This document shows positions 52 through 60,034 of a stretch of DNA of 64,000 nt, piece after piece (positions within the stretch are counted from its first letter, which is position 1; every line of letters begins with the position of its first letter). The stretch is taken from positions 122,635-186,634 of the IMG/VR virus record IMGVR_UViG_3300031133_000383; one strand, written 5' to 3'. Made by a program: the position numbers and the translations under genes. A model generated the notes under the pieces. It made no database searches. It was not told the origin of the DNA and worked only from the letters and a program-made list of their open reading frames with translations. This DNA comes from a virus (taxonomy: Duplodnaviria; Heunggongvirae; Uroviricota; Caudoviricetes).

Positions 52-504
52 ATGAGAAAACGACTATTTTTGTTGGCTTTTTTTAGTTTATTGTCATTAA
101 ATAGTTTGGCAGAAGAGTTTGAAAAACCCTATATTTATCATGTGTATTCAAAAGATCAATCTTTAGATGTGACTTTTCATCGAAAATTTAATAAGCCTTA
201 TGATGTTGGGGTTATCAGTGTTTTCAATACACCAGAGTGCCCAATCGATGGCAATCATAACATGGCAAAACTAACTATAATTCCTCTAACGGCCAATGAT
301 ACAGTTATTAGCAGTCTTATTATTCTTAATGAACAAAAAACAGTAAATTCAAGAATATTTACTAGTCAAAAAAACATATGTAAGGCATTTTCTGGTGTAT
401 CATCCAATTCAGCAATTTATTTTTATATGCATTCTGATCTCAACACAGAAAATTACTTTGAACTACCCGATGGTAATGTAGTCTATATCCAGATTAATCA
501 TTGA
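52..504 (+). CDS. hypothetical exported protein
   Basis: ATG 52 preferred over 19 (GGAG SD); signal-peptide-like MRKRLFLLAFFSLLSLNSLA. Confidence 0.75.
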   Translation: MRKRLFLLAFFSLLSLNSLAEEFEKPYIYHVYSKDQSLDVTFHRKFNKPYDVGVISVFNTPECPIDGNHNMAKLTIIPLTANDTVISSLIILNEQKTVNSRIFTSQKNICKAFSGVSSNSAIYFYMHSDLNTENYFELPDGNVVYIQINH

Positions 505-1250
505 ATCAAATATTGACTGTTACAACCTTAAATGGTATAATACCGCTTATAAAATATGACTTATCGTTGAGGATGATTGTGAAACAAAAAAATTTTTTAT
601 TCCTAAAAAAAATATTTTTAAACTTATTGACTCAATTTAAGTTTGTAAATGTTGATATCAAAAAAATAAAGATTAATTTGGTATCATCTGATGAGCAGAA
701 AGACCATCTTGTGATTTGTGTAAGTGGTATGATGGTTGCACAGGTTGATTTAACATTTGTTAACCATGATATAGAAACAAATTATATATTAAAGAAAAAG
801 ATCCACAATATTAGAATAACATTGGTTAGTTCCTTAATACAAAATTATGACAATATGTTTAGTGGGTTAACAAAACAATATTTATATAATATCAGTATTG
901 ATGATGTTAACCATATCAACATTGGACTCACATTGGACTATAGATTATGTTATAGTATTCGTTCAAAAACAGACAAGCGTGAAGTACAAGATCTTCATAT
1001 ATTGATGACTCGTGATCATAATATCAAAGGAGCCTGTGGGCTAACCAACCTACCTACAAGAGATAGTGTATGTGAGCCTCTAGCATGGAATCGGGCTGCT
1101 ATTGATGAGATTGTGATTCTTTATTTAATCAATGCCAATAACCCTGAGCTTTATAATGCTTTATTTCCAACCTTTGATATAAATCTCGATTTGAATGACA
1201 TTGTTGATCTTTTAAACTGCTTGAAAACTCTAGAGATGGCATCTTACTGA
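501..1250 (+). CDS. hypothetical protein, C-terminal MxxPhi motif family
   Basis: 249 aa, TTG start overlapping upstream stop; ends LKTLEMASY. Confidence 0.75.
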   Translation: MNQILTVTTLNGIIPLIKYDLSLRMIVKQKNFLFLKKIFLNLLTQFKFVNVDIKKIKINLVSSDEQKDHLVICVSGMMVAQVDLTFVNHDIETNYILKKKIHNIRITLVSSLIQNYDNMFSGLTKQYLYNISIDDVNHINIGLTLDYRLCYSIRSKTDKREVQDLHILMTRDHNIKGACGLTNLPTRDSVCEPLAWNRAAIDEIVILYLINANNPELYNALFPTFDINLDLNDIVDLLNCLKTLEMASY

Positions 1251-1396
1251 TTATTTGATACTATTTGTCCATTGATTTAAACCGCATATCAAAAGATACT
1301 TGAAATTATTGTTTTATTCATTAAATATTATTTAAATACATTTGAATTTTTTATTTTTAAATATACAATGAATATTTAATTATGAAGGAGTTTCAA

Positions 1397-1747
1397 ATGT
1401 TTACTAAATTATTCTTAGGTCTTTCACTTCTCACCTGCTCAGCCATTTCGTATGCAGAAGAAATACAAGAAGATCCCATTCAGACTGAGCTTCGAGATCC
1501 CACAGATAAATGCTATTTTAATGCCGATCAGTTTAATTTTAATGGTATATTTGTTGACCATGATCAATCAACTAGCTATGTGTATGGTAGCAATATTATT
1601 TATTACAACCATAAGGGTGAAGCCAAAGAGCCTGATAGTATGTATAAAGGCGATCTAAAAGAGTCTGATGAAGATGGCGACACTTATGAAATATGCATAA
1701 AGAAAAATGCTAATGTATATAAGCTGGAAGAAACTCATAATAAATAA
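1397..1747 (+). CDS. hypothetical exported protein
   Basis: AAGGAG SD before ATG 1397; signal peptide ending SYA; acidic mature part. Confidence 0.75.
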   Translation: MFTKLFLGLSLLTCSAISYAEEIQEDPIQTELRDPTDKCYFNADQFNFNGIFVDHDQSTSYVYGSNIIYYNHKGEAKEPDSMYKGDLKESDEDGDTYEICIKKNANVYKLEETHNK

Positions 1748-1769
1748 AAGCCTTTCGACAGGCTTTTTT
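1746..1769 (+). terminator. intrinsic terminator
   Basis: AAAGCCT-ttcgac-AGGCTTT followed by T run, right after stop. Confidence 0.75.
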
Positions 1770-1842
1770 GTTTATAATTTGATTAATTATTTTATTTTTT
1801 ATTCATCATGTGTTACTATCTTATAATATTTTGAGAGTGATT

Positions 1843-2589
1843 ATGTATAATAGAACTATTGGACTAGATAAATTCTATACGGCTGATTTAAATGCCGTTA
1901 TGATTGATTCCTATAACGAAGCAGATGAATTAATAAAACTTAAAAAAATAATTTACTCTAGAAAAAAAGCATTTATACTTTCTGAAAATTACCTTTATCT
2001 TTTAGAGAAATTAGGTTTTACTATTTACACACCTATAGAGAGCGGTAGCGAACTAGATTTAGGTTGTGTTATCAAATTTTTAGATAGTAATAAAATCAGT
2101 ATCAATTATACACATCATTATCAGTTAAAAGGAGAAAAATCTGTCGATCTATTTTTAGACCAGTTCTTTTTTGATAAATCAATAGGAATTCAATTTTATT
2201 ATTTGACTGTTAAGAGTTTTAGTAATTCTTTACATGATCTTGATAGACAGAAATGGCCTTTCTTGATTAAGTTTGAATACAAAGGAGATGTTACTGTAGA
2301 ATTTAAACGTATAGAAAACGGTAGCGAAAAGATAGTGTACAACTATTATAATACAGGTAATACTTTTAAAAGTTATCAAATGACAAATGATTTTTTTATT
2401 TCAGAAATACATTTTTATAAACATCAAGTAAAACAACTCTATTTTAACTGGGATGGCAAAAGTTATTCGTTCTTTGAAATTTGTCAATATTTACCTTACC
2501 TTCAAGATATTGGACAAGATAAAATTGCTAAAGGCAAGTATATAATATCAAAAGATGAAATAACACTAATGAGAATGAATCAATATTAA
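1843..2589 (+). CDS. hypothetical protein, C-terminal MxxPhi motif family
   Basis: ORF (track start 1810; ATG 1843 has GAGAG SD); ends EITLMRMNQY. Confidence 0.75.
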   Translation: MYNRTIGLDKFYTADLNAVMIDSYNEADELIKLKKIIYSRKKAFILSENYLYLLEKLGFTIYTPIESGSELDLGCVIKFLDSNKISINYTHHYQLKGEKSVDLFLDQFFFDKSIGIQFYYLTVKSFSNSLHDLDRQKWPFLIKFEYKGDVTVEFKRIENGSEKIVYNYYNTGNTFKSYQMTNDFFISEIHFYKHQVKQLYFNWDGKSYSFFEICQYLPYLQDIGQDKIAKGKYIISKDEITLMRMNQY

Positions 2590-3551
2590 ATTTCGAGCAT
2601 TTTTAATACTAGTAATGTATTTTCAAATTTTTCTTTGTTTGATATATCGAGTGATAAGTTATAATTTTTTTCAATTCTCTCTTTTATTGTATCGAAAAAC
2701 TGACTTCTAATAAAACCATCTTTTTCTTTTATAAAAATATTTTTTTCAAAACATAATAGGTCACTTCTATTAGAGCCTATGTTTTCATATTTTTTCATCA
2801 TAAACATAAATTTTATTTTCTTTTTGTTTGTTTTTAGATTAATTCTTTTATCGACAATTAATTTAATAATAAAATCTTTCTTTAATGAGTAAGATACAAT
2901 TTTGTCATTTATCAAATAATCAACCAATGTCATTTGATAAGTAAACGTTTCAATTAATTCTTTAATGATCTGACTATTCTTGTATTCGTTGAAAATATAA
3001 TATTTATTGTTTTTGAAAAAAACAGAAATTTCATTTTTAATTTGTAGGATATCTTTTTCTTGCTTGAATTGTATATAATCAGTTGCACCTGTTGCTAAAT
3101 AAATAATATTGACTTTTATATTAAAGTAACCATTTGAATAAGTTCTTTTAAATCTGTACTCACCTATTTGTGCATCAAATATAAGTGTCTTATTCCATGA
3201 TTGCTCCTGTTTTTCTTGTAGAAAATATGTTTTTATAATGGTCAACTCATTCGAATCAAAAAGTACCTTGTCTGATTCATCATCCTTGAAAAAATACCAG
3301 CCTTCATTATGATTAAGTTTAAAACTCAATACAGCGTATTTTTCTCTATTTGCTTCATATTTTAAAAAAGCTAGTTTAAATTTTTGACAGGCAAGATAAG
3401 TTGGATATATATCTGGACAGCAATATTTAAATGTATTTTCATTAATTTTTAATACTCTGGTATTGTTTTCGTCAGGTATTGCAAAGATTCCATTATTAAT
3501 AAAATCTAAATGCATATTCTTGTCCAGATAATGCCTATTGATTAAATTCAA
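2586..3551 (-). CDS. hypothetical protein, C-terminal MxxPhi motif family
   Basis: 321 aa, AGGAG SD; ends TLLVLKMLEI. Confidence 0.8.
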   Translation of the reverse strand: MNLINRHYLDKNMHLDFINNGIFAIPDENNTRVLKINENTFKYCCPDIYPTYLACQKFKLAFLKYEANREKYAVLSFKLNHNEGWYFFKDDESDKVLFDSNELTIIKTYFLQEKQEQSWNKTLIFDAQIGEYRFKRTYSNGYFNIKVNIIYLATGATDYIQFKQEKDILQIKNEISVFFKNNKYYIFNEYKNSQIIKELIETFTYQMTLVDYLINDKIVSYSLKKDFIIKLIVDKRINLKTNKKKIKFMFMMKKYENIGSNRSDLLCFEKNIFIKEKDGFIRSQFFDTIKERIEKNYNLSLDISNKEKFENTLLVLKMLEI

Positions 3552-3681
3552 CTATTTTCTCCTTATACACTAAACATCTATACATAATATTTTCTTTTAT
3601 TTTTTTTAAAAATCAATATTCAATTGGTTTTTATTTATTTTCTTGTTATAATCCAGCATTAATTATTTAGGAGATTAACTA

Positions 3682-5208
3682 ATGTCTAAAATTACAACAG
3701 ATGATTGTAAAAATTTTTTGATGGAACATTATCCTGATTCTGGTAAATCTAAATGGAAACGAGTCAGTAAGTATAAAGATGATGTGGGATTGTGGTGCCG
3801 TGAATTCAATCATCCATCCGTAGGTGATATTACTATTATTGAAAATAATGGAACTTTGTCTTTGAAACAGACGGCTGTGCCAAATCCTATTGACATCAAA
3901 AACAATACAATTATTTTTCGTCAGTTTTCTAAAAAGGATAATACTGATGCAAAACGTTTGATTAAACGTTATATTGGTACTATTTATGGTGAAAATGAAG
4001 AAGATGAAGAAGAAGAAGAATTTATTCCACAGTCTACTCAAAAAGGATATGAAGCAATACCTAATCAAATCAACTACTTTTTTACCTTGTTGGATGAAGA
4101 GTATGAAGACCAAATGAAAAGGATTAATGAAAATAAAGACTATAATGCAAAATTAAACACATTCATACTTTATATTTATCCTAATCAAGAAGAAAATTAT
4201 GATCAGCATATCGGACCTTTGTTGGAAAATTTTTTGGGACCGCAGTTTAGCGAAGATACAGAATGCATTTTTTCTACTTCATTTGATGAGCCGATGTCAA
4301 TTAAAGACTTTGTACAGATGATGTCCAGTAAAGGATTTGTTTATGCATTTCTTGATTCTACTAATCCACAAGATAATGAGACTTGTTTATTAGCTGATAC
4401 CGTTAGGTCACTTGATTTTGTAACAGTTAAAGAAAGTACTATTGTCAAATCAGATGCTGATCTTCCAAAACTTTTTAAAGAATCGGTTGAAAGAGATGAT
4501 GTTGTTTGTTTGAAAGATTTGCTACGTCAAGGACTACCATTGGATACTTTGATTAATCGTATATCCCTACATTCTTATTGTATTGTTAATGACGCTCCAA
4601 ACTGTTTTAAACTTTTAGTCAATAATACACCTAACTTAGCAAAAGGAACTTTACGAGCAACAAATACCGTATGGTCTGATATGATAAATTTTGGACAGCA
4701 ACCTAGTAATTTTAACTATACTGAATATGTCTTTGAGCATGGTAATTTTGATTTTAGAGACGAAAATTATAATTTTAATCTAGACTTTTTGGAACTTATT
4801 ATTTCTCAGCAGTATTTGTTTGAGAAATTTAAATCAAAAAGTAATGATATTTATAGAGCGTTGGCTTGTTTATATTTTTGTATTCAAAACGAAAATATTT
4901 ATAATGTCTCATATATTGCGGAAGAAGCTGACAAAGCAATTGATCAGTATCCAGAAGTTGTAGGTGATTTAATTGATATTTCAATCGCATTTGGTAATAA
5001 TGCTATCAATATTTCTGATACATTGATGCAGAAACTTATTGACTCTGACAGGTTGAAAATTTCAGGTATTCGTTTTGAAGATTATATTATCAGAAGTTTA
5101 GATATTATTAAAAATAATAGACATCATCTTTCTGATTCTGACAAGCATTCTGGTATTCAGTTTTATACAAGCATATTGAAACGTATTCAAGATAAGTCTA
5201 AAATTTAG
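3682..5208 (+). CDS. hypothetical protein with acidic tract and possible ankyrin-like helical repeats
   Basis: 508 aa, AGGAG SD; EEDEEEEE tract; DDVVCLKDLLRQG / NDAPNCFKLLVNN resemble ankyrin helices (weak). Confidence 0.75.
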   Translation: MSKITTDDCKNFLMEHYPDSGKSKWKRVSKYKDDVGLWCREFNHPSVGDITIIENNGTLSLKQTAVPNPIDIKNNTIIFRQFSKKDNTDAKRLIKRYIGTIYGENEEDEEEEEFIPQSTQKGYEAIPNQINYFFTLLDEEYEDQMKRINENKDYNAKLNTFILYIYPNQEENYDQHIGPLLENFLGPQFSEDTECIFSTSFDEPMSIKDFVQMMSSKGFVYAFLDSTNPQDNETCLLADTVRSLDFVTVKESTIVKSDADLPKLFKESVERDDVVCLKDLLRQGLPLDTLINRISLHSYCIVNDAPNCFKLLVNNTPNLAKGTLRATNTVWSDMINFGQQPSNFNYTEYVFEHGNFDFRDENYNFNLDFLELIISQQYLFEKFKSKSNDIYRALACLYFCIQNENIYNVSYIAEEADKAIDQYPEVVGDLIDISIAFGNNAINISDTLMQKLIDSDRLKISGIRFEDYIIRSLDIIKNNRHHLSDSDKHSGIQFYTSILKRIQDKSKI

Positions 5209-7835: not shown

Positions 7836-8726
7836 ATGCAACTACATCACTTATACAAACAGTATGGACAGGATCTTTTTTCATCTAGAGAATTCCAGCA
7901 TATTTGGGATAAAGGAATTGCATTTAGAATTTGCAATAATCGCATTGCAGTCGAAAAAGAAAGTCGAAATTCTAAAGACACCCATAGACGTAATGTTATT
8001 CATTCCAAGCTTCAAGAAACATTCAATTTTGAAACAATAAATAATGAAATTCATCATAAGATAATTCAACAATATTTCATAGCAATGAAAGAAATGTACA
8101 TGTCTGAAACTTTATATATTGTTGAAGACTCTTTAAATTTTGAAGTTGATAGAGTTCGTATTAATAAAAAAAACTCAATTATTGTAAGAAAACACAATGA
8201 TTTAACAAGAAATCATAAAGAGATCTTTAATGAGCGTGTTGTGTTTAATAGAGGCTTTATGGTAGATGAAGATAGTTCTTATGTTCTCTATACTGTCATA
8301 GCAAATCATGGAACTTTTGGAATTGACAATGAACACATGAAATTTTCATACTATGTCAGAAATAATAAATTCTATTTTGTTGCTCCTAAAATTTCAAAAG
8401 ATCGTTCTGCATTATTTGTTATAGATATTGATAAAGTTGAAAAGAATTTGGATATTATTTTAAATTCAATTAAAAAGAAAGTGTTTACGATGTTTTATAA
8501 AAAAGTAGCTGCATCGTTATTTGGCCAAAAATTGAGGTATTCTACACTCAGACCTGTTCACTTGTCTATTATTGATATGTTGGATAAACAACCGATTGGA
8601 CAGTTTTCATATTTTATAAAACATCAAATGGGATTTAATTTTGAAAGTAATGAAAACTTATCAGATAATGAACTATATACTGTATTTAAAAATTACCTAG
8701 CCGCATATCTAATGTTTTATATTTAA
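7836..8726 (+). CDS. hypothetical protein, C-terminal MxxPhi motif family
   Basis: 296 aa, GGAG SD; ends YLAAYLMFYI. Confidence 0.8.
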   Translation: MQLHHLYKQYGQDLFSSREFQHIWDKGIAFRICNNRIAVEKESRNSKDTHRRNVIHSKLQETFNFETINNEIHHKIIQQYFIAMKEMYMSETLYIVEDSLNFEVDRVRINKKNSIIVRKHNDLTRNHKEIFNERVVFNRGFMVDEDSSYVLYTVIANHGTFGIDNEHMKFSYYVRNNKFYFVAPKISKDRSALFVIDIDKVEKNLDIILNSIKKKVFTMFYKKVAASLFGQKLRYSTLRPVHLSIIDMLDKQPIGQFSYFIKHQMGFNFESNENLSDNELYTVFKNYLAAYLMFYI

Positions 8727-8742
8727 AAGGATTCTATATATT

Positions 8743-9501
8743 ATGATTAATGAAATAAACAACGTTCATGAGAAAAGATTAGACAATCTCTTAATGGAAT
8801 TCAATAAATTTTTGCCTTTATTGAAAATTAAAGAATTTAAATTCGCTAAGACATTAAATAAAAGCCAGCCCTTTAAAATAAAAGACAAAAATCAAAATAA
8901 AATTTATTTTAGTTCTTATTGTTATGATTTTTTAGCAGCCCTTGATGAAAATGAAATTATTGCCGATTCATTTAACAATGATTCACCCCAGTTTAATTTG
9001 TCTGCTGTTTATGATGCAATTACTGATAAGGTTGAAGTCAATTCTGTGAAATTTAGATTTATGGATTTAAATGATCCTGTGCTATTTTATTTAATTGATA
9101 GTAATAGTTTATCAATACTTAAACCACTCATCACAGAGATAAGTGAATTCATTTTAGAGAATTCTTCAATTATTGAATATCTGACAGTTCAAGTTAGTTT
9201 TAAGATTGATGGTACATTTGATAATCTCAGTCTGTTTTTTAAATATTATGAATTTAACTATAGTTCAAATAGTCATGAAAATTATTATACTAATAATATA
9301 AGCCTTTATGATAAATTATTGATCAAAGATTATGAATTAAATATAGAAAGAGATTTACGTGATTTTGCTGAAATGACTTTTTTGAGCATTTCTAACCCTG
9401 ATATGTTGGATTTTTTTTCCTGTTCTGATTGGCATGAACTCTGGAATATGTATTCAGAAAACCCAGAATCTATTAAATCTATTTTGGAAATGAATTCATG
9501 A
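8743..9501 (+). CDS. hypothetical protein, MxxPhi motif variant (Met at -3)
   Basis: 252 aa; ends SIKSILEMNS. Confidence 0.75.
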   Translation: MINEINNVHEKRLDNLLMEFNKFLPLLKIKEFKFAKTLNKSQPFKIKDKNQNKIYFSSYCYDFLAALDENEIIADSFNNDSPQFNLSAVYDAITDKVEVNSVKFRFMDLNDPVLFYLIDSNSLSILKPLITEISEFILENSSIIEYLTVQVSFKIDGTFDNLSLFFKYYEFNYSSNSHENYYTNNISLYDKLLIKDYELNIERDLRDFAEMTFLSISNPDMLDFFSCSDWHELWNMYSENPESIKSILEMNS

Positions 9502-9563: not shown

Positions 9564-10223
9564 ATGTTATTATTTTCTAATATTCCTATATTTATAAAAA
9601 AAAATATATATATAAGTGAATTTATTTATTTATCCGCAGCATCTTTTTTTGTTTTTGTTTACATGTCATTGAATCCTGAATCTAGCAGTCTTTTATTATA
9701 CCTTTATTTAATTGCAGGTATCTTACAAACTTTCTTTTTGTTGATAACCCTTTATCTAAAAGAATTTAATATGTATATGCATTCATTATTTAAACATGTA
9801 GCAATTTTTAATATTATGATGATAATATTTTGTATTGTAGCATCTCTTATTTTTGGAAATAAATTTGTTTTCATAGTTTTGATGTTTGGAACTGCCTTAC
9901 CCGCTTTTTTTCTGATTACAATCGTTAATTTACAATTTTTTAATAAACATGATTTTGAATTTTTGAAAGATAGGATGAATGAACATCTAGAGTACCTTAC
10001 AAAAATAAAACATTCTGATTGTGATTGGGTTTTCTATGATAAATCTAAACCTGACATATATTTTTCTCTATATCAAAATATTATTTTTTCGCCTTTTGGT
10101 ATTTATATAAAAGATAGATATATTCTTTATGTATGGTTATATCACTATATGGATGAAAATAATTTAAACTTCAATAATCTAACAGAACAAGACTACCAAG
10201 TAATTGAAATGACGAATTTTTAG
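9564..10223 (+). CDS. membrane protein (about 4 TM) with C-terminal MxxPhi motif
   Basis: hydrophobic N-terminal half; ends DYQVIEMTNF. Confidence 0.8.
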   Translation: MLLFSNIPIFIKKNIYISEFIYLSAASFFVFVYMSLNPESSSLLLYLYLIAGILQTFFLLITLYLKEFNMYMHSLFKHVAIFNIMMIIFCIVASLIFGNKFVFIVLMFGTALPAFFLITIVNLQFFNKHDFEFLKDRMNEHLEYLTKIKHSDCDWVFYDKSKPDIYFSLYQNIIFSPFGIYIKDRYILYVWLYHYMDENNLNFNNLTEQDYQVIEMTNF

Positions 10224-17905: not shown

Positions 17906-18535
17906 ATGTTCATAAAAAAGAAATGTTTTTCTAAAATTAAATCAAGCCTTTCATATTTTGGTATTTCACTTTATGATGATTCTATACTGGATGATGAGTT
18001 ATGTTTTAATTATTTATCCAGTTCAATAGGTCCTCTCAAAATCCAGAATATCGAAGATGTTTATATCATTACCCTAGCTGATTATTATCCTAAAGATGGA
18101 GTAATAGTTAACAGTAGGTTAATTAATCCTATATTTGATAAAACAATCAGTATAATTCAGCAGGATATGCAAATCTTTAATGCTGTACTCGGTAACATCT
18201 GGTTTAGTCATACAAATACAGTCAGTCCTATTCAGTTATTAAAGATCTTGTGTGTCAGTCCTTTATTGAAAGTATCTGCTCGTACAAAAGTCAATCAACC
18301 TGAATTTGATGTTCATTTTAGCCTATATGAAACTGTTTATTCTTTAGATATTGGTAATAAACAAAAAATTTCAAAAAGTGATTATTATTTCGGATATAAA
18401 GATTTTAAACTACTTAAAGAATATGGTGATTATCAACAGTTGACCCATGATATAATTGAAGGATATGGTCTTTCAGATGAATTTAACATTGATTTCAGTC
18501 GTCTAGGGGAATTAAAAATAATGGAACTTTATTAA
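17906..18535 (+). CDS. hypothetical protein, C-terminal MxxPhi motif family
   Basis: ends LGELKIMELY. Confidence 0.75.
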   Translation: MFIKKKCFSKIKSSLSYFGISLYDDSILDDELCFNYLSSSIGPLKIQNIEDVYIITLADYYPKDGVIVNSRLINPIFDKTISIIQQDMQIFNAVLGNIWFSHTNTVSPIQLLKILCVSPLLKVSARTKVNQPEFDVHFSLYETVYSLDIGNKQKISKSDYYFGYKDFKLLKEYGDYQQLTHDIIEGYGLSDEFNIDFSRLGELKIMELY

Positions 18536-18654
18536 AGTAATAAAGAAAAAAATCAGAAATTTATAACAGTAAATGTTTAGTATGATTGAAATGTTGTATA
18601 ATATAGCAGGTTCATTTGTGTTTTAATCGCATAAGAATAACAATCAATTTCGGT

Positions 18655-19041
18655 TTATTTTTTTATCAGGTTTCTGCTGCAATAATAATAAAGAGAATCT
18701 TTTTTAATACTCTTGAATCTTATATTATCAGCATCCGACTCTTTAACTCTTGCCAATTTTTCTTTACCATCAAAAAATATGTACTCATTTTCTACTTTCT
18801 TACTATATTTAGGAAAATAACTTGATTCTTTTTTATTGTTTACAGAAAAGTAGTTTTCTGTAATTGTTAAAGATATTTTGGATTTTTTATCTTTTGTGAT
18901 ACAAGACCAGTCTCCAATGAACTTATAATCTTCTGGTTTACCTTCTGTTAAAGCCATATACAATAGGATAGTTATCGTAACGATTGAAAACGCTAACAAA
19001 CTTAAAATTCTTGCATAGTTGATTTGATTATTAAACTGCAT
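18655..19041 (-). CDS. membrane-anchored protein, possible lipocalin-like fold
   Basis: N-terminal TM then FIGDW (GxW) motif. Confidence 0.65.
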   Translation of the reverse strand: MQFNNQINYARILSLLAFSIVTITILLYMALTEGKPEDYKFIGDWSCITKDKKSKISLTITENYFSVNNKKESSYFPKYSKKVENEYIFFDGKEKLARVKESDADNIRFKSIKKDSLYYYCSRNLIKK

Positions 19042-19100
19042 CTATATAGGCTCCTGTACATTCAATATAATAATGGATTAGAGACACAAGTCAATATAAT

Positions 19101-19128
19101 ATAAAAACTCTTCGAAAAGAGTTTTTAT
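19101..19128 (-). terminator. intrinsic terminator of oprH-like gene
   Basis: AAAAACTCT...AGAGTTTTT inverted repeat just past stop. Confidence 0.65.
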
Positions 19129-19143
19129 TCATTTTAAATGCTA

Positions 19144-19749
19144 TTAAAAATGATAATTCAACGCTACATATACTTGCTTGTTATTTTTAAGAGTAGCTGA
19201 TCCTACTTTCTCACTATCGTCTTTAAAATCAACTTTGTTATTGTTGAGCATATATTTAAGACCACCTTCAACTTCAAAGTTTTCGCCTACATTTTGGAGC
19301 AGTCCAACCTGACCACCATAGGTTAAGCCATAGGATCTGTCAGTAGATAAACCACCTGTATTGGTTTCAAGCTTGTTAATGCCCGCTGATACCCCAGCAA
19401 AGGCTCTTGTACCATAGTCATTCAATAAATAAAGATAATCGGCAGATCCAACTAAATTTTCTTGGATCAGTTTATTATGGTGTGCCGCACCTGATGTGTA
19501 ATCATACGATCCGTAGAATCTTCTATCTCCTAAATCTTTACCGGCTCTTACTCCCCATGTATTATCTTTATTGAATATATTATTGAAATCACTATATTCA
19601 AAATTATCTTTTGCGGTTTGACTGCTGGTTACTCTTGACCATGTTTTTCCCGCTGATGCACCTACAAATGTTGAGTCTGCATTGGCTAAACCAATGTAGC
19701 CTATTGAACTAATTGACATAATTGCTGTTGCAAGCATTAATTTTTTCAT
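19144..19749 (-). CDS. oprH: OprH-like 8-stranded outer-membrane beta-barrel
   Basis: signal peptide; TWGVRAG, NKLIQENLVGS, EGGLKY and C-terminal VALNYHF align with recalled P. aeruginosa OprH. Confidence 0.75.
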   Translation of the reverse strand: MKKLMLATAIMSISSIGYIGLANADSTFVGASAGKTWSRVTSSQTAKDNFEYSDFNNIFNKDNTWGVRAGKDLGDRRFYGSYDYTSGAAHHNKLIQENLVGSADYLYLLNDYGTRAFAGVSAGINKLETNTGGLSTDRSYGLTYGGQVGLLQNVGENFEVEGGLKYMLNNNKVDFKDDSEKVGSATLKNNKQVYVALNYHF

Positions 19750-19917
19750 AGACTTTCTTCCTCTTTAAGGGTTGATTTCTAGATATGCTAGCATAAAGAT
19801 TATATAAATCAATAGTTTATCTTTTTTTTCATAATACATTATCTATGGTTTTTTTCTATTTTTACTTTATATAATGAAAAATAATATCATCAAAAATGGA
19901 TTAAAAATCTTAAATAA

Positions 19918-19946
19918 TTGACTATACGGATTCATTTTGATATAAT
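19918..19946 (+). promoter_or_regulatory. sigma70 promoter
   Basis: TTGACT-N17-TATAAT. Confidence 0.75.
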
Positions 19947-19977
19947 TTCAACACTTTATTTATAGGTGGAGAATAGC

Positions 19978-20418
19978 ATGAAACAATCAGAGCAATTTTA
20001 TAGCATGACATTACTCAATTCCACAGGTGATATCACTTTGACATGGGAAAATGCTGAAGACGCTGAGATTAAAGCCATGATTCAGGCAAAGATTGATGCG
20101 GGGTACTGTTTTTTCATTCTTGAGCCAAGAGTCAGCTTTTTGAAAGTTTTGGGTAGCAAAAAGAAAACAATACGTGATATTTCTGAAATTAAAGGGCGTG
20201 AAGTCGTTATGAAAACAAAGGAAAATATGACAGGAAAAGCGGTTCTTAATGATACATTTAATTTAGGTGACGAAGCTTCCGAAAATCTTTTTAGATTGGG
20301 CAGAATCGGCATTGCCAACGTGCCAGAAGACAGTTATAATACAGTACGCAAAACAAAGAATGCCTCAGAAGTCATGAGGAATCATACAGTTGTTGCTCCT
20401 AGAATTGCGGCAGGTTAA
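19978..20418 (+). CDS. hypothetical protein (GDITLTW..GYCFFI type), ends in AAG
   Basis: GGAG SD before ATG 19978 (track start GTG 19966); first gene of a two-gene unit. Confidence 0.75.
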   Translation: MKQSEQFYSMTLLNSTGDITLTWENAEDAEIKAMIQAKIDAGYCFFILEPRVSFLKVLGSKKKTIRDISEIKGREVVMKTKENMTGKAVLNDTFNLGDEASENLFRLGRIGIANVPEDSYNTVRKTKNASEVMRNHTVVAPRIAAG

Positions 20419-20427
20419 GAGGTAGAT

Positions 20428-21799: not shown

Positions 21800-22420
21800 A
21801 TGCTTGATAATGTTATGGACAAAGCATCTACACATGATTTTTTTTCAGCAATTTTTAAGAATTATTCGTGCAAATCAGTAAATCAATACATGCTAGAAAT
21901 TGAAACTGACAAGTTTCTAACTAGTGCTCAAATCTTTTTTATTGAAAAAGATCAATACAGTATTTCAGTCAACATGCCTCAGAGCTATGACATCAATACT
22001 GATTCTGATATCAAAGATAGACTGATTAACTTTTCATATTTTCATGATTTGTTTCATGTTAACCCTTTTCTATTTCATTTTGACAAAGTTAAAAAAATTA
22101 TTTTAGAGATCAATAAAAATCAATCAACGTTTAAGCTGTGTTTTGATACGTCTTTTGATGTAAATGCTGTTTTATCAATCTCTGAAAAAAAATCTTATCT
22201 TAGCTTGAATGGTATCATTGTCAAACTTCAAGAAAAAGACAATCTAGATGCTTACTATGATGAAATTTTTAGTAGATTTCTTAAAGACAAAAAATTTTCA
22301 ACCTTGAAAATAAATGGTGTTGAAGCTTGTCGTATTACTGACTTTATGCAGAATGAGCATATTGGCCCCAGAAATATTATGGATGAACATTTGGATATTA
22401 TTAAGATGTTTGATATTTGA
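21800..22420 (+). CDS. hypothetical protein, C-terminal MxxPhi motif family
   Basis: GAGGA SD; ends EHLDIIKMFDI. Confidence 0.8.
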   Translation: MLDNVMDKASTHDFFSAIFKNYSCKSVNQYMLEIETDKFLTSAQIFFIEKDQYSISVNMPQSYDINTDSDIKDRLINFSYFHDLFHVNPFLFHFDKVKKIILEINKNQSTFKLCFDTSFDVNAVLSISEKKSYLSLNGIIVKLQEKDNLDAYYDEIFSRFLKDKKFSTLKINGVEACRITDFMQNEHIGPRNIMDEHLDIIKMFDI

Positions 22421-24039: not shown

Positions 24040-24257
24040 CTTTCTTTTGACAGTTCATCTAGTTTTGTATTCCAGTAATCAATCTCTTTTTCGGAGTCCC
24101 TTACTCTTTTGAGCAAATCATTTTTAGTTTTATATTGGTTAATACCTGATTCAGTTTTTTCCTTTTCTAGAAAAGACAATGATTGTTTTTCAGAAGTAAG
24201 AATAGATAATGTAAATACAATACTGCCTATTATCGCAGTCGATATAAAAAAATTCAT
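24018..24257 (-). CDS. small membrane-anchored coiled-coil protein
   Basis: ATG 24257 after AAGGAC; hydrophobic N-terminus. Confidence 0.6.
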   Translation of the reverse strand: MNFFISTAIIGSIVFTLSILTSEKQSLSFLEKEKTESGINQYKTKNDLLKRVRDSEKEIDYWNTKLDELSKERKKVSAN

Positions 24258-24388
24258 AAAAAGTCCTTGTCTAGTCATCTCTATTTTAACAGTTACACCT
24301 TATCAGGTCAAATAAAAAGACCACTTAAATACCTTGTTTTTAAAGCATTTTTCATATACAATTAACTAAATTAATGAGGGTTTATAAA

Positions 24389-25150
24389 ATGCAAAATTTG
24401 ATTCCAGTTATTGAAGATGTTGTATTCAATGCTACTTTTGCAGATCTACCACGTTTTGATTTTTCCGATAATTCCCGATACATAAAAAACGAAAATAACG
24501 TTCGATTCATTATTCAAGCTTTGGCAGATGACATTCTTTGCGTTAGAGAAGATAAAGAAATTAATATGCAGTTTTATTTTGGAACTAATCATTTTGATAT
24601 CACATTAGGTTTATCGTATCCTTATTTTCATTATAAAGTAACTTTTTCTTTTAATTATGAATACCCTGATTTGAAAAAAAATATTAGAACAATTCTTAAT
24701 AATGAGCTTGATCGTATCATTAATGAGGAAGGTGTTCAATATAGAATTGTAGAAATTGAACCGGCTAAAGGATTTTTCAAAAATTTGGCAATTTTTGAAG
24801 AAGTGTTTGACACACATGGACAATTATATAATCACTTATGTAAATATCCATTTAAATCAGGAACAGGAGAGTCTAAGGATGCGTTTCAATTTTTTACCTT
24901 AATTAAAATGATGAATGGAATCCCTTCCATTTGTTTAAAGTGTCCCATTTTTGAAGTTCTGATTTCACACTATGTTATTCAATTTGATTTTAAAGGGATT
25001 GAACTTAGTTTTAATAATGATTTTCTATATTCCGATAATCGTGTAAACACTATTCGTGAACTTATCATCAACTTGTTTAATTCTAAAAATAATTACAATG
25101 TTACTGCTATTGATAATCTCAAAAGCATTACTGCCATGATTAGCATTTGA
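24389..25150 (+). CDS. hypothetical protein, C-terminal MxxPhi motif family
   Basis: GAGGG SD before ATG 24389; ends LKSITAMISI. Confidence 0.8.
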   Translation: MQNLIPVIEDVVFNATFADLPRFDFSDNSRYIKNENNVRFIIQALADDILCVREDKEINMQFYFGTNHFDITLGLSYPYFHYKVTFSFNYEYPDLKKNIRTILNNELDRIINEEGVQYRIVEIEPAKGFFKNLAIFEEVFDTHGQLYNHLCKYPFKSGTGESKDAFQFFTLIKMMNGIPSICLKCPIFEVLISHYVIQFDFKGIELSFNNDFLYSDNRVNTIRELIINLFNSKNNYNVTAIDNLKSITAMISI

Positions 25151-25214
25151 TTTACAGATGCATTTATTTTTGTTATAATGCAGTTCACATTAAGGCATTT
25201 AAAAGGTAGTTGAT

Positions 25215-35062: not shown

Positions 35063-35085
35063 AAAGCCTTCGAAAAGGCTTTTTA
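35063..35085. terminator. bidirectional intrinsic terminator
   Basis: AAAGCCTT-cgaa-AAGGCTTT. Confidence 0.7.
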
Positions 35086-40032: not shown

Positions 40033-40097
40033 ATTGATGTTTTTAAGGCTATGTGTTATAATTTTTTTAGAAATTACTCTTGTACATAGGAAATTTT

Positions 40098-40733
40098 ATG
40101 AAAATCCCTAAAAGTATTCAAAAAAAAATATCAGAAGCATTAATCAATAATTATGATTTTTCAAAAGTGAGTTTTGGAGAAAAATCTCAGCATTATATGT
40201 ATTGTGATTATCAATATCTAAGTATCAAACGCAAACCTAAGATTGGAGCAGTCAAAGATGCTAGCATTTACACTATTTACAGTGAATCATCGAGTGATTT
40301 GAGTAAATGGCTTCCAATCGAATTGGTAGGTGCTGTAAAAGACACCATTCGGACACTCAATGGTTTGAAGTATAATTTCTTGTCAGATTCAGGTCTTAAC
40401 CTTAGTCAAATCAAAATCAGCAATTTGATTATTAATTTTTTTGAAGGGGATATACAAGATCTATCACGTCCTCTTGCTGTTTCTGCTGGTTTTTGGATTA
40501 CAACTAGCAGTGGTATCAAAATAGGTTACTGTGAGGTCTACAAAGACCATATCGTATACAATGGTGACATGGTTAATGATGAAGATTTTCCAAATCTTCT
40601 TGGAAACGATTACACCGCTTTCTTAGCAAAAATCGATGACTCCTTTATTTATGACTATCAAACTAAGACATTTCAGGAAAGAGTTGATGATATTAGGAAT
40701 GTTATGTTGACCAAGGAAATGTTTTCTATTTGA
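40098..40733 (+). CDS. hypothetical protein, C-terminal MxxPhi motif family
   Basis: AGGAA SD before ATG 40098; ends VMLTKEMFSI. Confidence 0.8.
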   Translation: MKIPKSIQKKISEALINNYDFSKVSFGEKSQHYMYCDYQYLSIKRKPKIGAVKDASIYTIYSESSSDLSKWLPIELVGAVKDTIRTLNGLKYNFLSDSGLNLSQIKISNLIINFFEGDIQDLSRPLAVSAGFWITTSSGIKIGYCEVYKDHIVYNGDMVNDEDFPNLLGNDYTAFLAKIDDSFIYDYQTKTFQERVDDIRNVMLTKEMFSI

Positions 40734-46870: not shown

Positions 46871-47518
46871 ATGCATAAATTATTAATAAAAGCTTTATCA
46901 TTGAATCAAGATGATATTACTATTGAACATCTAGGTGTTGGTGATATTTTTAAAATAAAAAACCATGGCATTTTAAAAAAGAAACCTTTCAAAGATGTTT
47001 TTCTTTTAAAAAAATTTACTCACCCTATGATTGACGGGATAAAAAAAGACACTATAGCCAGTTACTTATCGTTTGTATATTATTTTAATATATATTTTAA
47101 AGATGCTTATGAACATGAGGTTTTATTACCGCCCACCTATACAGAATTGGCAGAACATTTTGAGATCAACTTTATAAATTCTAATGAATATGAACTTTTT
47201 TATACGATTCAAATGAAATTCAAAGGCGAACATAATTATTCAGATAATCTTTTTATCCGTTATAAATTGGTTGAAGGCAAACCTGTTACATGCACGATTG
47301 ATTTCAATATAGGAGCGACTTCTGGTTTTTATCGTCACTCTTCAAAAATACTCGATTTTGAAATTAATATGAATTATTATTTAGGGCAGCACATTTTTAT
47401 ATTGGCTTTTATTTATAAAAGATTTCTTCCAATTGTTGAAGAAACCTTTGAAAGTTTTGACGATTTTGTGTATAATATTGACGATAATTTAAAAATTCTT
47501 ATTATGCAAACTTTCTAG
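46871..47518 (+). CDS. hypothetical protein, C-terminal MxxPhi motif family
   Basis: GGAG SD; ends NLKILIMQTF. Confidence 0.8.
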   Translation: MHKLLIKALSLNQDDITIEHLGVGDIFKIKNHGILKKKPFKDVFLLKKFTHPMIDGIKKDTIASYLSFVYYFNIYFKDAYEHEVLLPPTYTELAEHFEINFINSNEYELFYTIQMKFKGEHNYSDNLFIRYKLVEGKPVTCTIDFNIGATSGFYRHSSKILDFEINMNYYLGQHIFILAFIYKRFLPIVEETFESFDDFVYNIDDNLKILIMQTF

Positions 47519-47529: not shown

Positions 47530-48096
47530 ATGCAGTTACAGGCACAAGCACTTGCACAGTTTATGGGCAGTACTGATTATTCTATTGATGGAACCAGCAT
47601 TCATATAAATAATAATAAATTTTCTTTGTTGACATGTGAGACAAATGGCTATACTTTTCGTATTCCTGCCAAATTCAAGCACCCCGATAGATATTTTTTA
47701 GATCATTATATTGATACGATTGCTAACACAATTAATGATTTCTTTGTTGGTTTAGATGCACAGTCATTTCTAAAACAATTTACACAAACTACCTGCATTG
47801 TTGTAAATGCTGATATGCAAGTTAGCTTAAAGTCCATATTTACAAAAAAGAAGCAGAACCTTGTTCTAGCAATTCCCTTATTTGAGCAGCATGAATTAAA
47901 TCATGTTAATTTTAGTATTGAAAAAAATGATTCTCAGTATATAACCTGCATGAAGTCATGGAAGAATAATCATCAGTCACACAATTTAAAGCATTTGTAT
48001 CTTTTATCTAATTTTGAGTATCAAATAAAAAAAATGTTTGGAACACTTGAAAATATTGATAGTTGCAGTGATCTACTTGATATGTATTTTCTTTAA
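47530..48096 (+). CDS. hypothetical protein, C-terminal MxxPhi motif family
   Basis: AGGAG SD; ends CSDLLDMYFL. Confidence 0.8.
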   Translation: MQLQAQALAQFMGSTDYSIDGTSIHINNNKFSLLTCETNGYTFRIPAKFKHPDRYFLDHYIDTIANTINDFFVGLDAQSFLKQFTQTTCIVVNADMQVSLKSIFTKKKQNLVLAIPLFEQHELNHVNFSIEKNDSQYITCMKSWKNNHQSHNLKHLYLLSNFEYQIKKMFGTLENIDSCSDLLDMYFL

Positions 48097-51277: not shown

Positions 51278-52303
51278 ATGAAATATTATTCAATGGCATC
51301 CATTAAAAGTCCAATTATGAAAAGACTCAAAACCAAGCTGGATAAACAAGTTTTATCTGCTCTCACTAGTGTTGCATTCATGTATAAAAACATTGAATTA
51401 AAAGATATATATTTATCAGTAGGTAAAGAAATAAGTAATGTATTCAATGAAGATCAAATTGAAAAAATAAATCTTTTTCTAACGATGAAAGATAAAATGT
51501 TTACAATCAGTTCAGATGACATGCAAAAAGCCGAAGTTGCTGTTGATGAACTATATGTTCATCGCTATACAGATTTTAATGATTTGGAGAAATCTAAAAT
51601 TGAAGCAAGTAAAAATGAAATTTATCAATTAGCAAAACAACAGAAAAAACAGGAAAAATACGATAAAAACATCAAACAACAAATTTATGGTACATTAACA
51701 GACTATTCATTGTTATCAAAACCTATGTTGGCATTAGATTTTGAATTCAAACACAGTCAGCAAGATAAATACCACTTTAGTAATATACTAGAAGTTGGCC
51801 TTTCTATTGTAAAGAATAGTTTAATAGAAACGCATCACTACATTATCGAAGAGAATAAAGATTTTAAACAATCAGAATCGTCCAGAGAAAGACAGCACAG
51901 TTTCGCATTTGGACAATCGCAATATGTCTCTTATCACGACTTGCACACTCTACTAAATGTGTATTTTTCAGCAACCACTGCACTTATTGTTCACGATTAC
52001 TCAGCCGAGATTGCTTTTCTTGATCGACAAGGTATTGGATATGAACATCTAAATATTTTTGATACACAAATGTTGTATCGCTATAATTTTAAAGGCAACA
52101 ATGATTCCGATAGTAAGAAACTCTGTCATCTTCTACAAGATCATCGTATTGTATACAAAGATTTACACAATGCTGGCAATGACTCTCAAGCCACTGCTGA
52201 ACTTTTTCAATCTATGTGTAAGAAAATCATCAAGAACTGGCCGCATGCTTTAAAAATTTATGATCCAGTCCAGATCTTGACGAAGATGAATAATGCCATT
52301 TAA
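51278..52303 (+). CDS. DEDDh exonuclease, paralog 4
   Basis: LDFEF, HDYSAE, HNAGNDSQAT. Confidence 0.8.
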   Translation: MKYYSMASIKSPIMKRLKTKLDKQVLSALTSVAFMYKNIELKDIYLSVGKEISNVFNEDQIEKINLFLTMKDKMFTISSDDMQKAEVAVDELYVHRYTDFNDLEKSKIEASKNEIYQLAKQQKKQEKYDKNIKQQIYGTLTDYSLLSKPMLALDFEFKHSQQDKYHFSNILEVGLSIVKNSLIETHHYIIEENKDFKQSESSRERQHSFAFGQSQYVSYHDLHTLLNVYFSATTALIVHDYSAEIAFLDRQGIGYEHLNIFDTQMLYRYNFKGNNDSDSKKLCHLLQDHRIVYKDLHNAGNDSQATAELFQSMCKKIIKNWPHALKIYDPVQILTKMNNAI

Positions 52304-53076
52304 ACCCTGTAAGCTTCCAATAATGCCAGATGATTGGTTTCAAACATAGATTTATCATAATTTTTATTGTCGTAAAATTTTTGTAGTTCTTTTTTCCAAC
52401 AATAGTCAAAGATCAGGCTTCCATAAAAATCATCTATCAAGTTTCTGATGATTTCTTTGTTATCTTCTGTCATTATGGAACTGACTGTATGTGTATCAAC
52501 TTGGTATTTGTTATAAATATGTGAGATGAAGTAAAAGATAATTTCTTTCTCTCGAATACAGTAGGCAATTTTGTAATTATGCCTGTTCTTTAATAGCATG
52601 CTGAAACAATTAATGATATCAACTGATTGCTCAGTTACTTTGAATAATTTGTTAATACAATACTCTTGTGATGTATATGATTTAGAACCCGTTTTTGTCT
52701 TTATGGTATAGACTTCATTTTCAACATGATGTGATGATACAGAAATGTCATTTTTTACAAAATCTTCTTCTTCTTTCGTCAATTTCAAAAATTTATATCG
52801 GTCAAATACGTCAAACATAACATCAATAATTTGTTTTTCAATAGTTTGATTGGGTAGCTGAATGTTATTGCCAAATTTATTCAGAATGAATCTATATTTT
52901 TGATTTTTTGATGTCTGAATACCTTTTGATACATCAGTAATTGATAGACAGAGCGTATCTTTAGACGATAAGTAAGGTACATTCTTAAAAATAGAGACAC
53001 TTCCAACAGCATTTTGAAATTCAGAAGATTTTACCATTTTCTTACCAGTTTTGGCATAAATTTCATTAAGTCTCAC
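52300..53076 (-). CDS. hypothetical protein, MxxPhi motif variant (Ala at -4)
   Basis: AGGAG SD; ends NHLALLEAYRV. Confidence 0.75.
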   Translation of the reverse strand: MRLNEIYAKTGKKMVKSSEFQNAVGSVSIFKNVPYLSSKDTLCLSITDVSKGIQTSKNQKYRFILNKFGNNIQLPNQTIEKQIIDVMFDVFDRYKFLKLTKEEEDFVKNDISVSSHHVENEVYTIKTKTGSKSYTSQEYCINKLFKVTEQSVDIINCFSMLLKNRHNYKIAYCIREKEIIFYFISHIYNKYQVDTHTVSSIMTEDNKEIIRNLIDDFYGSLIFDYCWKKELQKFYDNKNYDKSMFETNHLALLEAYRV

Positions 53077-58428: not shown

Positions 58429-58468
58429 TAAAGGCTTTTACTTATAAAAACTAAGGAGACTATATTAT

Positions 58469-59317
58469 ATGTTAGCAGGCATTATTGGAGATGTTATAGG
58501 TTCAGTATATGAAGGTAGACAATGGACTGTTCATGATCAAGAACTGATACAACCGCTTCCTGTGGATGATAGTAAAAGTCCACTATTATTGAAAAATACC
58601 AAATGGGTACGACCTGAATACTCATGGACGGATGATTCTTTGTGTACGCTAGCTTTATATTCTGCTTTTTTAAACAAACAGAATCCTACTACTGCACTTA
58701 TTTATTTTTGTAAAAAATATGAAACAGAGGCGACTGGTTTTGGCCGTAGCTTCAAGCAATGGATTAAAAATCCTGTGCCTTATCAATCATTTGGAAATGG
58801 CTCAATCATGAGAGTTGGTTTTATTCCCCATCTGAAAATTTCCCTACATGAAAAACTGCATATCGGTGTTGCATACACCAATATTTCCCATAATCATAGT
58901 GATAGTATTAATGCAGTTTTATCATTTATTAAGTTAACACATCAATTGATTAATGGTTCATTTATTGATATGGAAAATAAAAAATTAGTTTTGAAAAATA
59001 TACTGCTTAAAAATGGTTTTTATGAAACAGTTGAAAGTATGCATGCACTTAAAAAATTTGAAATAAATGCAATGACTACTTTTCTTCAAGCCTGTGCTAT
59101 TGTTTATGAAAGTAAAAATTTTGAAGATGTCTTAAAAAATAGTTTTTATGTAGGTGGCGACTCTGATACTTTAGCCTGTGTAGCCTGTAATATTGCAGAA
59201 CATATTTATCCAATACCCGCTCATCTACTTGAATATTCTTTAAAAACCTTTGAAAATTATCCTGAGTTGAATAACTTGATTCAGAGATTTCAGTCTTCTT
59301 GTTGTAAATTGAATTGA
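58469..59317 (+). CDS. ADP-ribosylglycohydrolase (DraG/ARH family)
   Basis: GIIGDVIGS.YE, WTDDS, GNGSIMRV, SHNH, GGDSDT. Confidence 0.9.
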   Translation: MLAGIIGDVIGSVYEGRQWTVHDQELIQPLPVDDSKSPLLLKNTKWVRPEYSWTDDSLCTLALYSAFLNKQNPTTALIYFCKKYETEATGFGRSFKQWIKNPVPYQSFGNGSIMRVGFIPHLKISLHEKLHIGVAYTNISHNHSDSINAVLSFIKLTHQLINGSFIDMENKKLVLKNILLKNGFYETVESMHALKKFEINAMTTFLQACAIVYESKNFEDVLKNSFYVGGDSDTLACVACNIAEHIYPIPAHLLEYSLKTFENYPELNNLIQRFQSSCCKLN

Positions 59318-59377
59318 TAGTATCTATTTTTCAATATTTTTGTTATAATACAGTCTTCTCTATAAAAAGGTATCTGT

Positions 59378-60034
59378 ATGTCATTGATTGATAATTTTGA
59401 AACGTTTAAAAAACATTTGGAATCTAATAAATTATTGATAGTCAATCTTCCTGATTTATTTGAGTGGATTCAATCTTTAGGTTATAAAGAGTTTGTAGAG
59501 AATTCTTTTGAAATTGGATTTTGTTATAATTTTTTTAAAATTGAAGACAATTATATTTCTTATTTGACGTTTGAAAAAGAAAATGATTTTTTTAAAATAA
59601 CAAAAAAAACAAAACTTATTAAAAATGATCAAATCATCTCTTTATTATTGGAAAACTTTGATAGTTTAGCTGTTAATAATCTACAACATCACATGCCAAC
59701 ATTTTCAGACCCGACAGAAATAGAATATAAACAATTACACCAGATTATAAAATGTGGTCAAAAAAATCAAATTTTAAAGAGAGTGACTAAAACCTATACA
59801 GGAGAGTATATTAGATACACTAAAGGTGCTGATAATGATTTCTATGTTTCTCTGATTGTTTTCAAAGAAAATATTGTTGTTTATATAGAATTCATAATCG
59901 ATAATCATGTGATTGATGGTTTTCAATTTATGGATATCATTTCTTTGGGATTGCCTACGATTGACAACTTCGAAGATTTTGAAAATTTAATTAAGCCAGA
60001 AGAACAAGTTATCATTAGAGCACTTTTAATTTAA
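59378..60034 (+). CDS. hypothetical protein, MxxPhi motif variant (Ala at -4)
   Basis: AAGGT SD; ends EEQVIIRALLI. Confidence 0.75.
   Translation: MSLIDNFETFKKHLESNKLLIVNLPDLFEWIQSLGYKEFVENSFEIGFCYNFFKIEDNYISYLTFEKENDFFKITKKTKLIKNDQIISLLLENFDSLAVNNLQHHMPTFSDPTEIEYKQLHQIIKCGQKNQILKRVTKTYTGEYIRYTKGADNDFYVSLIVFKENIVVYIEFIIDNHVIDGFQFMDIISLGLPTIDNFEDFENLIKPEEQVIIRALLI

Follow-up and report, generated by a model that had tools for sequence, protein, structure and literature searches.

What holds together a set of proteins that share little besides their last few residues? The question arises from a 64,000-nucleotide stretch of DNA (the window), bases 122635-186634 of the single virus record IMGVR_UViG_3300031133_000383 (Caudoviricetes; 437,043 bp). 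An earlier note, made from the sequence of the window alone, drew attention to twelve open reading frames (ORFs) that encode methionine exactly four residues from the end of the protein, and proposed that unrelated proteins carry a common C-terminal tail read by a single hub. The analysis reported here extends the set to about 100 carriers across the record. The reading we prefer – to which we give roughly an even chance – is that these carriers are one lineage-specific, fast-diverging family, whose constant C-terminal handle probably docks one shared partner.

An excess of methionine at the fourth position from the end

Genes were called as simple longest ORFs: 84 in the window and 569 in the record. 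All twelve C-terminal strings quoted in the earlier note were recovered at their ORFs, each with Met at -4 (where -1 is the last residue); longest-ORF calling places three of the starts elsewhere (1810 for 1843, 24374 for 24389 and 40080 for 40098). Met occupies position -4 in 14 of the 84 window ORFs, against 1.9 expected (binomial P = 8e-9), and in 102 of the 569 ORFs of the record (18%), against approximately 13 expected (P = 8e-58). At each of the other positions from -1 to -15 the Met count (among the 569 ORFs) lies between 8 and 17, and in a scan of all 20 residues over these positions Met(-4) is the strongest signal, ahead by more than 40 orders of magnitude. The earlier note had named enrichment over background as a check on its proposal: the enrichment is strong, in the window and in the whole record. 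About a dozen of the 102 carriers are chance occurrences, probably including the window ORFs 28487 and 35083; in 10-15 more motif-bearing proteins -4 is occupied by Ile, Leu or Ala, and in a few others the motif is shifted by one residue. Carriers are evenly distributed over the genome. The signal is real and far above chance.

Around the methionine lies a motif of about 15 residues, consisting of an acidic cap followed by h-x-[LIV]-[LIV]-[EK]-M-h-x-[IYLF]-COOH (h, hydrophobic); information above background spans about -15 to -1. Genome-wide, carriers are enriched for D/E/N at -15, -12 and -11 and have hydrophobic residues at -13/-14, -9, -7, -6 and -3, with I/Y/L/F/V at -1; L/I/V is found at -7 in 83 of the 102 and E/K/D at -5 in 68. 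The finer features reported for the window are borne out: eleven of the twelve quoted carriers end in I/Y/F/L, and the hydrophobic -6/-7, the charged -5 and the acidic stretch upstream hold for the genome as a whole.

The signal is in the protein and at its free end

A pattern at the ends of genes could reflect chance, base composition, or a signal in DNA or RNA (a promoter, terminator or coupling signal). An AT-rich genome does make hydrophobic, Lys/Asn-rich protein ends common; otherwise no support for such an origin was found. The signal at the DNA level is confined to codon positions 1 and 2, with none at position 3 or 3' of the stop codon, and because of this distribution it is clear that selection acts on the protein. 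The mix of stop codons used by carriers is much like that of other genes, and promoter-like motifs upstream are equally frequent in both: by upstream k-mers and extended -10 promoters, carriers are indistinguishable from other genes. Together with the probability given above for Met at -4, these data leave an origin in chance, composition or nucleic acid signals with practically no probability, and we regard it as refuted by the position scan, the codon-position analysis and the Met(-4) statistics.

The position of the motif was examined with a position matrix scored without the Met column. There were 51 strong matches at C-termini, compared to two truly internal matches with Met in approximately 115,000 internal windows; the motif is therefore tied to the free C-terminal end.

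Sequence relationships among carriers

Comparison by BLASTP leaves 80 of the 102 carriers as singletons, and phmmer searches with bodies from which the tail had been removed yield subfamilies of five, four and three members and several of two. Alignment of eight subfamily profiles with hhalign gave one further link only (E = 4.6e-4), a deep body-only profile of one subfamily found only its four known members, and by shuffled Smith-Waterman z-scores random pairs of carriers align no better than carrier/non-carrier pairs. Judged from the sequences, tandem duplication is visible in the origin of the family, with clear tandem duplicates in 8 of 22 adjacent carrier pairs. The lengths of carriers are narrowly distributed (interquartile range 213-275 amino acids (aa), vs. 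117-276 for other ORFs). In about seven true members 2-4 membrane segments replace the N-terminal part; some 100 soluble residues are kept before the tail.

A predicted C-terminal domain common to two subfamilies

AlphaFold2 models were obtained for the protein encoded at 24374-25150 of the window with 37 homologues (predicted local distance difference test, pLDDT, 92) and for a second subfamily, comprising five paralogues near genome 260-345 kb (pLDDT 83). Both models have the same arrangement: a small N-terminal domain of sheet plus helix is followed by one or more helices and an antiparallel sheet of 5-6 strands, after which come a long helix, a loop and the terminal helix. In the model of 24374-25150, residues ~1-120 make up the N-terminal alpha/beta domain, ~127-240 the C-terminal alpha-beta-alpha domain and 246-257 the terminal helix. 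When the two C-terminal domains were compared exhaustively to 48,161 PDB chains, eight of the top 50 chains, among them Med17C, CyaY/frataxin, the Fbxo7 FP domain and the MotA C-terminal domain of T4, were common to both with Z 4-6.8, and this overlap argues that the predicted domains resemble each other. The best matches of both are small alpha-beta-alpha sandwiches – frataxin/CyaY, type III secretion chaperones, the Med17 C-terminal domain (Med17C), the FP domain of Fbxo7/PI31 and the T4 MotA C-terminal domain – with 80-114 aligned residues and the terminal helix outside the aligned core. Chains with the frataxin-like or type III chaperone-like arrangement (helix, 5-6-stranded antiparallel sheet, helix, both helices on one face) are matched by both models at Z 4-6.8, which is below the level that is safe for assigning a fold; values below 8 may reflect only a common arrangement, and there is no sequence similarity to the matched proteins. 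Several of these are dimeric protein-binding modules, which fits the dimer predicted below. Neither model had a significant match when searched with Foldseek against the PDB, AlphaFold DB clusters, BFVD and the ESM Atlas; the models that the Atlas itself offers for carriers are of low confidence, and Atlas feature searches were uninformative.

Modelled as a homodimer, the 24374-25150 protein scores 0.44 compared to 0.00 for the best control; the mark set for this score is reached by 20 of 30 solved homodimers and by 1 of 23 solved monomers. Three runs agree in 100% of contacts, with partner pLDDT of at least 78. The model supports, but does not prove, pairing of the C-terminal domain as a symmetric homodimer; strand 207-217 (the last) and helix 226-238 (the penultimate) form the predicted interface. 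None of the interface residues placed with confidence belongs to the tail helix, which does not put that helix outside the interface. The terminal helices start eight residues after the interface helix and may lie near the dimer dyad. In the monomer model of the same protein, the better of the two monomer models, pLDDT is 93-96 over the tail helix and its linker, and approximately two thirds of the helix circumference (-1, -3, -4, -6, -7, -9, -13) is hydrophobic. Because of these two features the helix is probably packed in a groove, either its own or that of some partner. In the model of the second subfamily the tail has pLDDT 52-68.

A trace of the same layout is found in the remaining 86 carriers. 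When their residues are numbered from the C-terminus, amphipathic periodicity gives a helix signal between -27 and -38 (P = 0.0025) and a strand signal between -60 and -105 (P = 4e-5), relative to 198 length-matched controls. The description of the carriers as unrelated cargo therefore needs qualification: it stands in that most show no sequence or profile similarity to each other; it is not borne out by the same predicted C-terminal domain in two subfamilies, the shared periodicity and the narrow range of lengths. Membership of one homologous family, which the earlier note had said would speak against its proposal, is found in part and at the level of fold only.

The tail in other elements

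When 1.84 billion representatives were searched exhaustively by HMMER with the 24374-25150 subfamily, 38 foreign homologues (~14-42% identity) were recovered, located on short metagenomic contigs. Met is at -4 in 22 of these and replaced there by Ile or Leu in six; two have Met with an additional residue, and three are fragments. Homologues from other elements mostly keep the tail, as the proposal of a common tail had led one to expect. Within the subfamily Met is present at -4 in 27 of 33 sequences, Ile at -1 in 24 and L/I/V at -7 in 29, and among 224 windows of thirteen residues the tail ranks 35th for conservation, with two N-terminal blocks ranking higher. Genes that neighbour the homologues on their contigs are also tail-bearing. 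In three elements (genome 187018-193853; L010:1457-9996; L016) genes of the subfamily adjoin a conserved protein of ~780 aa (phrog_33734), which is 67% identical between two of the elements.

Searches further afield were negative. A 50-kb stretch of the jumbo phage Phosso shows no tail excess (Met at -4 in 1 of 72 ORFs). Two window members, used in word-index homologue searches, led back to proteins of the same genome alone; when viral contigs and GTDB genomes were scanned for patterns from carriers, from a protein with a von Willebrand factor A (vWA) domain and from the conserved 778-aa neighbour, no relatives came up; and Pfam, PHROGs and literature searches returned no published description of the tail.

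A search for a reader, and comparison with known systems

The same proteins are found again on a 604-kb contig, and the 437-kb record may therefore be a fragment, perhaps the non-structural part of a larger genome. Its largest ORF is only 778 aa, and across its length there are zero Pfam matches to Gp23, Terminase_6N and tail sheath, and zero matches to family B polymerase. With this limit, the single hub that the earlier note had foreseen did not emerge: no reader was found among the candidates searched in the record. A gp45-type clamp (PF09116) and a beta clamp (PF00712) gave no match, and a query with the Phosso clamp found nothing. No match was found for a PDZ domain (PF13180), although a reader may be encoded by the host; and no VirD4/VirB4 type IV secretion genes (PF02534, PF03135) were detected in the record, which may be incomplete. 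For a reader of the Clp type, the only Clp-like match is a weak one to a lone ClpP/S49-type protease gene, and no unfoldase partner was found. The AAA+/vWA modules of the window, also suggested as hub, receive no specific support: such pairs are present in hundreds of jumbo phages, and the only one of these phages checked is Phosso, which lacks the excess in the 50-kb stretch. Nor did the suggested likeness to F-box-type adaptors hold, since a Pfam scan of ten window carriers (E up to 0.1) detected no F-box or PRANC domain and no significant match of any kind.

Among described systems the nearest mechanism is that of bacteriophage T4, where gp43, gp55 and gp33 share a hydrophobic-acidic C-terminus that docks on the gp45 clamp: the epitopes are interchangeable, there is one hub, and each epitope is joined to its body by a divergent, flexible linker (PMC2988020). 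The tail described here likewise is short, combines hydrophobic with acidic residues and ends the protein, but the likeness is one of pattern alone, and the carriers could not be assigned to that class. T4-type epitopes are found on three or four proteins, whereas here there are about 100; the linker and tail helix appear ordered in the model rather than flexible; neither a clamp nor a family B polymerase was found in the record, possibly a fragment; and whereas in T4 the tail is borne by proteins of replication and late transcription, here none of the recognisable proteins examined bears it. The DNA polymerase of Phosso ends in a clamp-epitope-like tail, ...FNDLFTF.

The nearest evolutionary pattern is that of expanded adaptor families (F-box, BTB, ankyrin-PRANC). 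Such families, the ankyrin-PRANC proteins of poxviruses, giant viruses and Parachlamydiaceae included, are very large, fast-evolving and lineage-specific, and like the present family they combine a variable portion with one short module that stays constant, which in their case binds a hub. That module is a domain of 40-50 residues in the adaptor families but a terminal helix of 12-15 residues here; their F-box, PRANC and BTB domains were not found by Pfam in the carriers scanned, which could not be assigned to this class either, and we know of no Skp1- or cullin-like hub here. A Prok-RING_4 protein is present in the genome, with no link to the tail family.

Two further systems offer partial likenesses. 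The coat-binding helix-loop-helix of P22 scaffolding protein, the cargo-loading peptides of encapsulins and the targeting sequences of T4 internal proteins all direct proteins to one shell protein, and like the helical terminal element of the P22 scaffold the tail family is predicted to end in penultimate helix, loop and terminal helix. The T4 internal-protein signal is, however, N-terminal and cleaved, and binding in P22 is mainly electrostatic and involves basic residues, whereas the tail described here is C-terminal, acidic and hydrophobic; searches for Gp23, Terminase_6N and tail sheath turned up no capsid, portal or terminase gene in the record, and only the lone ClpP/S49-type protease, which resembles head maturation proteases, was found. 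The Dot/Icm systems of Legionella and Coxiella export hundreds of unrelated orphan effectors by means of a loose C-terminal signal, acidic upstream and hydrophobic near -3 or -4. That signal is degenerate and disordered, without an invariant residue at a fixed distance from the end, whereas here Met is fixed at -4 and the tail is a predicted helix; moreover Dot/Icm hosts are bacterial, while the element studied here is phage-like, and VirD4/VirB4-type genes were not found in the record.

What the terminal helix may do

The tail acts at the level of the protein, is strictly terminal, sits on proteins of dissimilar sequence, is kept in homologues and is absent from recognisable enzymes, and so has the properties to be expected of a common interaction handle. 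On the reading we prefer, a typical member would be 190-320 residues in length and comprise a variable N-terminal part (2-4 membrane segments in about seven members, otherwise a small alpha/beta domain), a C-terminal alpha-beta-alpha sandwich, a short loop and an amphipathic end helix of 12-13 residues. The sandwich would pair as a symmetric dimer by way of its last strand and penultimate helix, and only the terminal helix would keep recognisable sequence (Met at -4, L/I/V at -7, E/K at -5, a hydrophobic last residue). We infer that the helix and the free carboxyl end are recognised together by one shared partner; in the unbound state, the helix may lie in a groove on its own domain. On this view the variable bodies would supply some 100 different specificities, of which host takeover or counter-defence is the most plausible use. 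A partner in trans is favoured because Met has been kept where Leu or Ile would pack equally while other core positions drifted, and because a fixed distance to the carboxyl end is typical of end-anchored recognition. A more speculative suggestion, which we hold only tentatively, is that the helix is a carboxyl-anchored address tag, through which a single receptor of the clade would bring some 100 variable, dimeric, effector-like proteins together; the site might be the inside of the capsid, so that they are co-injected with the DNA, or an enzymatic hub.

Several observations weigh against a family with a docking handle. No partner for the tail was found, and profile searches detect no similarity of bodies between subfamilies. 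The shared layout rests on two modelled subfamilies; the fold matches are middling, too low for a fold assignment (Z below 8), and the alpha-beta-alpha arrangement is common. In some lineages Met(-4) has been swapped for Ile or Leu, and a clade of five homologues (~230 aa) ends before the tail, so that the body can exist without it. Finally, the high pLDDT of tail helix and linker in the better monomer model fits a helix that is packed on its own domain as a structural cap.

This last point can be taken further. If the carriers are a single diverged domain family, then the helix could be purely structural: the last element of the domain, packed in the groove of its own sandwich, with no separate partner. 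A helix hydrophobic over so much of its surface would be sticky as a free tail, the layout is common across the family, and frataxin/CyaY chains – frataxin being a protein in which the C-terminal region packs between the two helices – are among the best fold matches. Against this, some 100 proteins have retained Met while the rest of their core has diverged past detection, and Leu or Ile would fit equally well; the second model gives the tail moderate confidence only; homologues without a tail exist; and a constant spacing from the carboxyl terminus is seen more often where recognition is anchored at the end. We consider a purely structural role a serious rival, though on the whole somewhat unlikely. 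The tail-less homologues count in favour of the scheme originally put forward, in which a machine for secretion, capsid loading or adaptor function reads a portable tag on genuinely unrelated cargo, as do the absence of sequence or profile similarity between most bodies, the occurrence of the tag on both membrane and soluble carriers, its strictly terminal position and the acidic stretch upstream of the hydrophobic end. That scheme is difficult to reconcile with a common predicted C-terminal domain and a narrow range of lengths; the tails show none of the codon-level identity that recent transfer of cassettes would leave; VirD4, VirB4, Gp23, Terminase_6N and tail sheath are absent from the record, which may be a fragment; and the carriers scanned have no F-box or PRANC domain. 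It appears to us improbable. Much the same terminal position and hydrophobic end would suit a C-terminal degron, by which a protease or unfoldase of host or phage removes some 100 proteins at a set time, and a ClpP/S49-type protease gene lies at genome 237188-238132. The tail is, however, predicted to be a structured helix and not a flexible end, no unfoldase partner was found, and an acidic or basic -5 combined with Met is to our knowledge unlike the end signals of ClpX, Lon or Tsp; a degron is thus very unlikely.

If the carriers are one family with a docking handle, then a very large phage-like genome devotes close to one fifth of its coding capacity to a family that no database recognises, finding the partner would explain about 100 orphan genes at once, and the handle would provide a rule by which to read the dark matter in huge phage genomes. 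If the helix is an address tag, the element would encode a sorting system with a clientele on the scale of a proteome. If it is only a structural cap, the family would be a clear case of divergence beyond sequence detection with fold and one terminal signature kept. The tail can in any case serve as a practical end-of-protein marker for picking out the repertoire of the clade in metagenomes.

Members in the window

Carriers and probable variants in the window are listed in Table 1. Recognisable enzymes of the window lack the tail, as had been claimed, and the carriers do include both soluble and membrane proteins (9564-10223 being an example of the latter). Of five variants suggested previously, 8743 and 52300 are plausible, 16937 and 59378 are weak, and 34447/34465 is not a member.

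Table 1. ORFs of the window with the C-terminal tail or a variant of it. Scores are motif scores calculated without the Met column.
Position	Strand	Feature	Length (aa)	Tail	Score and remarks
501..1250	+	Member	249	...LKTLEMASY	9.4; no significant Pfam family
1810..2589	+	Member	259	...ITLMRMNQY	7.6; paralogue at genome 318585-319349
2586..3551	-	Member	321	...LLVLKMLEI	6.3; no relatives in viral contigs
7836..8726	+	Met(-4) carrier, weak motif context	296	...LAAYLMFYI	-0.6
8743..9501	+	Probable variant, one residue short (Met at -3)		...SILEMNS	4.5 when aligned one residue short
9564..10223	+	Member, two predicted membrane segments (43-61, 79-97)	219	...YQVIEMTNF	7.7
17906..18535	+	Met(-4) carrier, weak motif context	209	...GELKIMELY	-0.9
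21800..22420	+	Member	206	...LDIIKMFDI	10.7
24374..25150	+	Member, modelled	258	...KSITAMISI	38 foreign homologues; AlphaFold2 pLDDT 92; fold matches at Z 4-6
28487-29245 and 35083-35466	-	Previously unlisted Met(-4) ORFs, rest of motif absent, probably chance			Poor motif scores
29495..30061	+	Member	188	...IKVQEMIDT (ends in Thr)	7.7
40080..40733	+	Member	217	...MLTKEMFSI	2.9
46871..47518	+	Member	215	...LKILIMQTF	4.4; Atlas model confidence too low for use
47530..48096	+	Member, adjoins 46871 member	188	...SDLLDMYFL	4.0
52300..53076	-	Probable variant, Ala at -4		...LALLEAYRV	4.2 without Met column

Genomic setting

The record has 31% G+C, is 87% coding under the standard bacterial code and contains 26 tRNA genes. 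Other cargo of the window includes two pairs of MoxR-type AAA+ and DUF2201-vWA genes, a PBECR5 nuclease and a diiron oxidase-methyltransferase fusion. With the vWA protein as yardstick, the closest phages in culture are jumbo myoviruses such as Phosso, Atu_ph07, XaC1 and the Rak2-like coliphages (31-36% identity). A full-length DnaK is encoded at 60173-62074 of the window and is ~73% identical to a tblastn match in a record labelled Pseudomonas phage Y6; the matching DNA is possibly host-derived, and the match hints at a proteobacterial host despite the low G+C content.

Outside the window, the ClpP/S49-type gene at genome 237188-238132 matches a PHROG annotated as head maturation protease (E = 9e-34); its neighbours are tRNA-synthetase-like, NUDIX and MazG-like genes, with no head module around it. 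Extended -10 promoter-like sites (TGNTANAAT) number 362 genome-wide and are clustered 23-29 bases 5' of start codons, at about a quarter of all genes, an arrangement that suggests very short leaders and genome-wide transcription of the host sigma-70 type. ARAGORN predicts a tRNA with a CUA anticodon (the amber suppressor type) at genome 375947-376020 and a tRNA with a four-base anticodon (agaa) at 389162-389237. Cargo unusual for a phage is also found elsewhere in the genome: the Prok-RING_4 protein (18366-20576), an MFS-acyltransferase fusion (24221-26173), a HAMP-domain methyl-accepting chemotaxis protein (85426-87084), an M3 oligopeptidase (102124-104040) and an ART-PolyVal ADP-ribosyltransferase (3029-4927).

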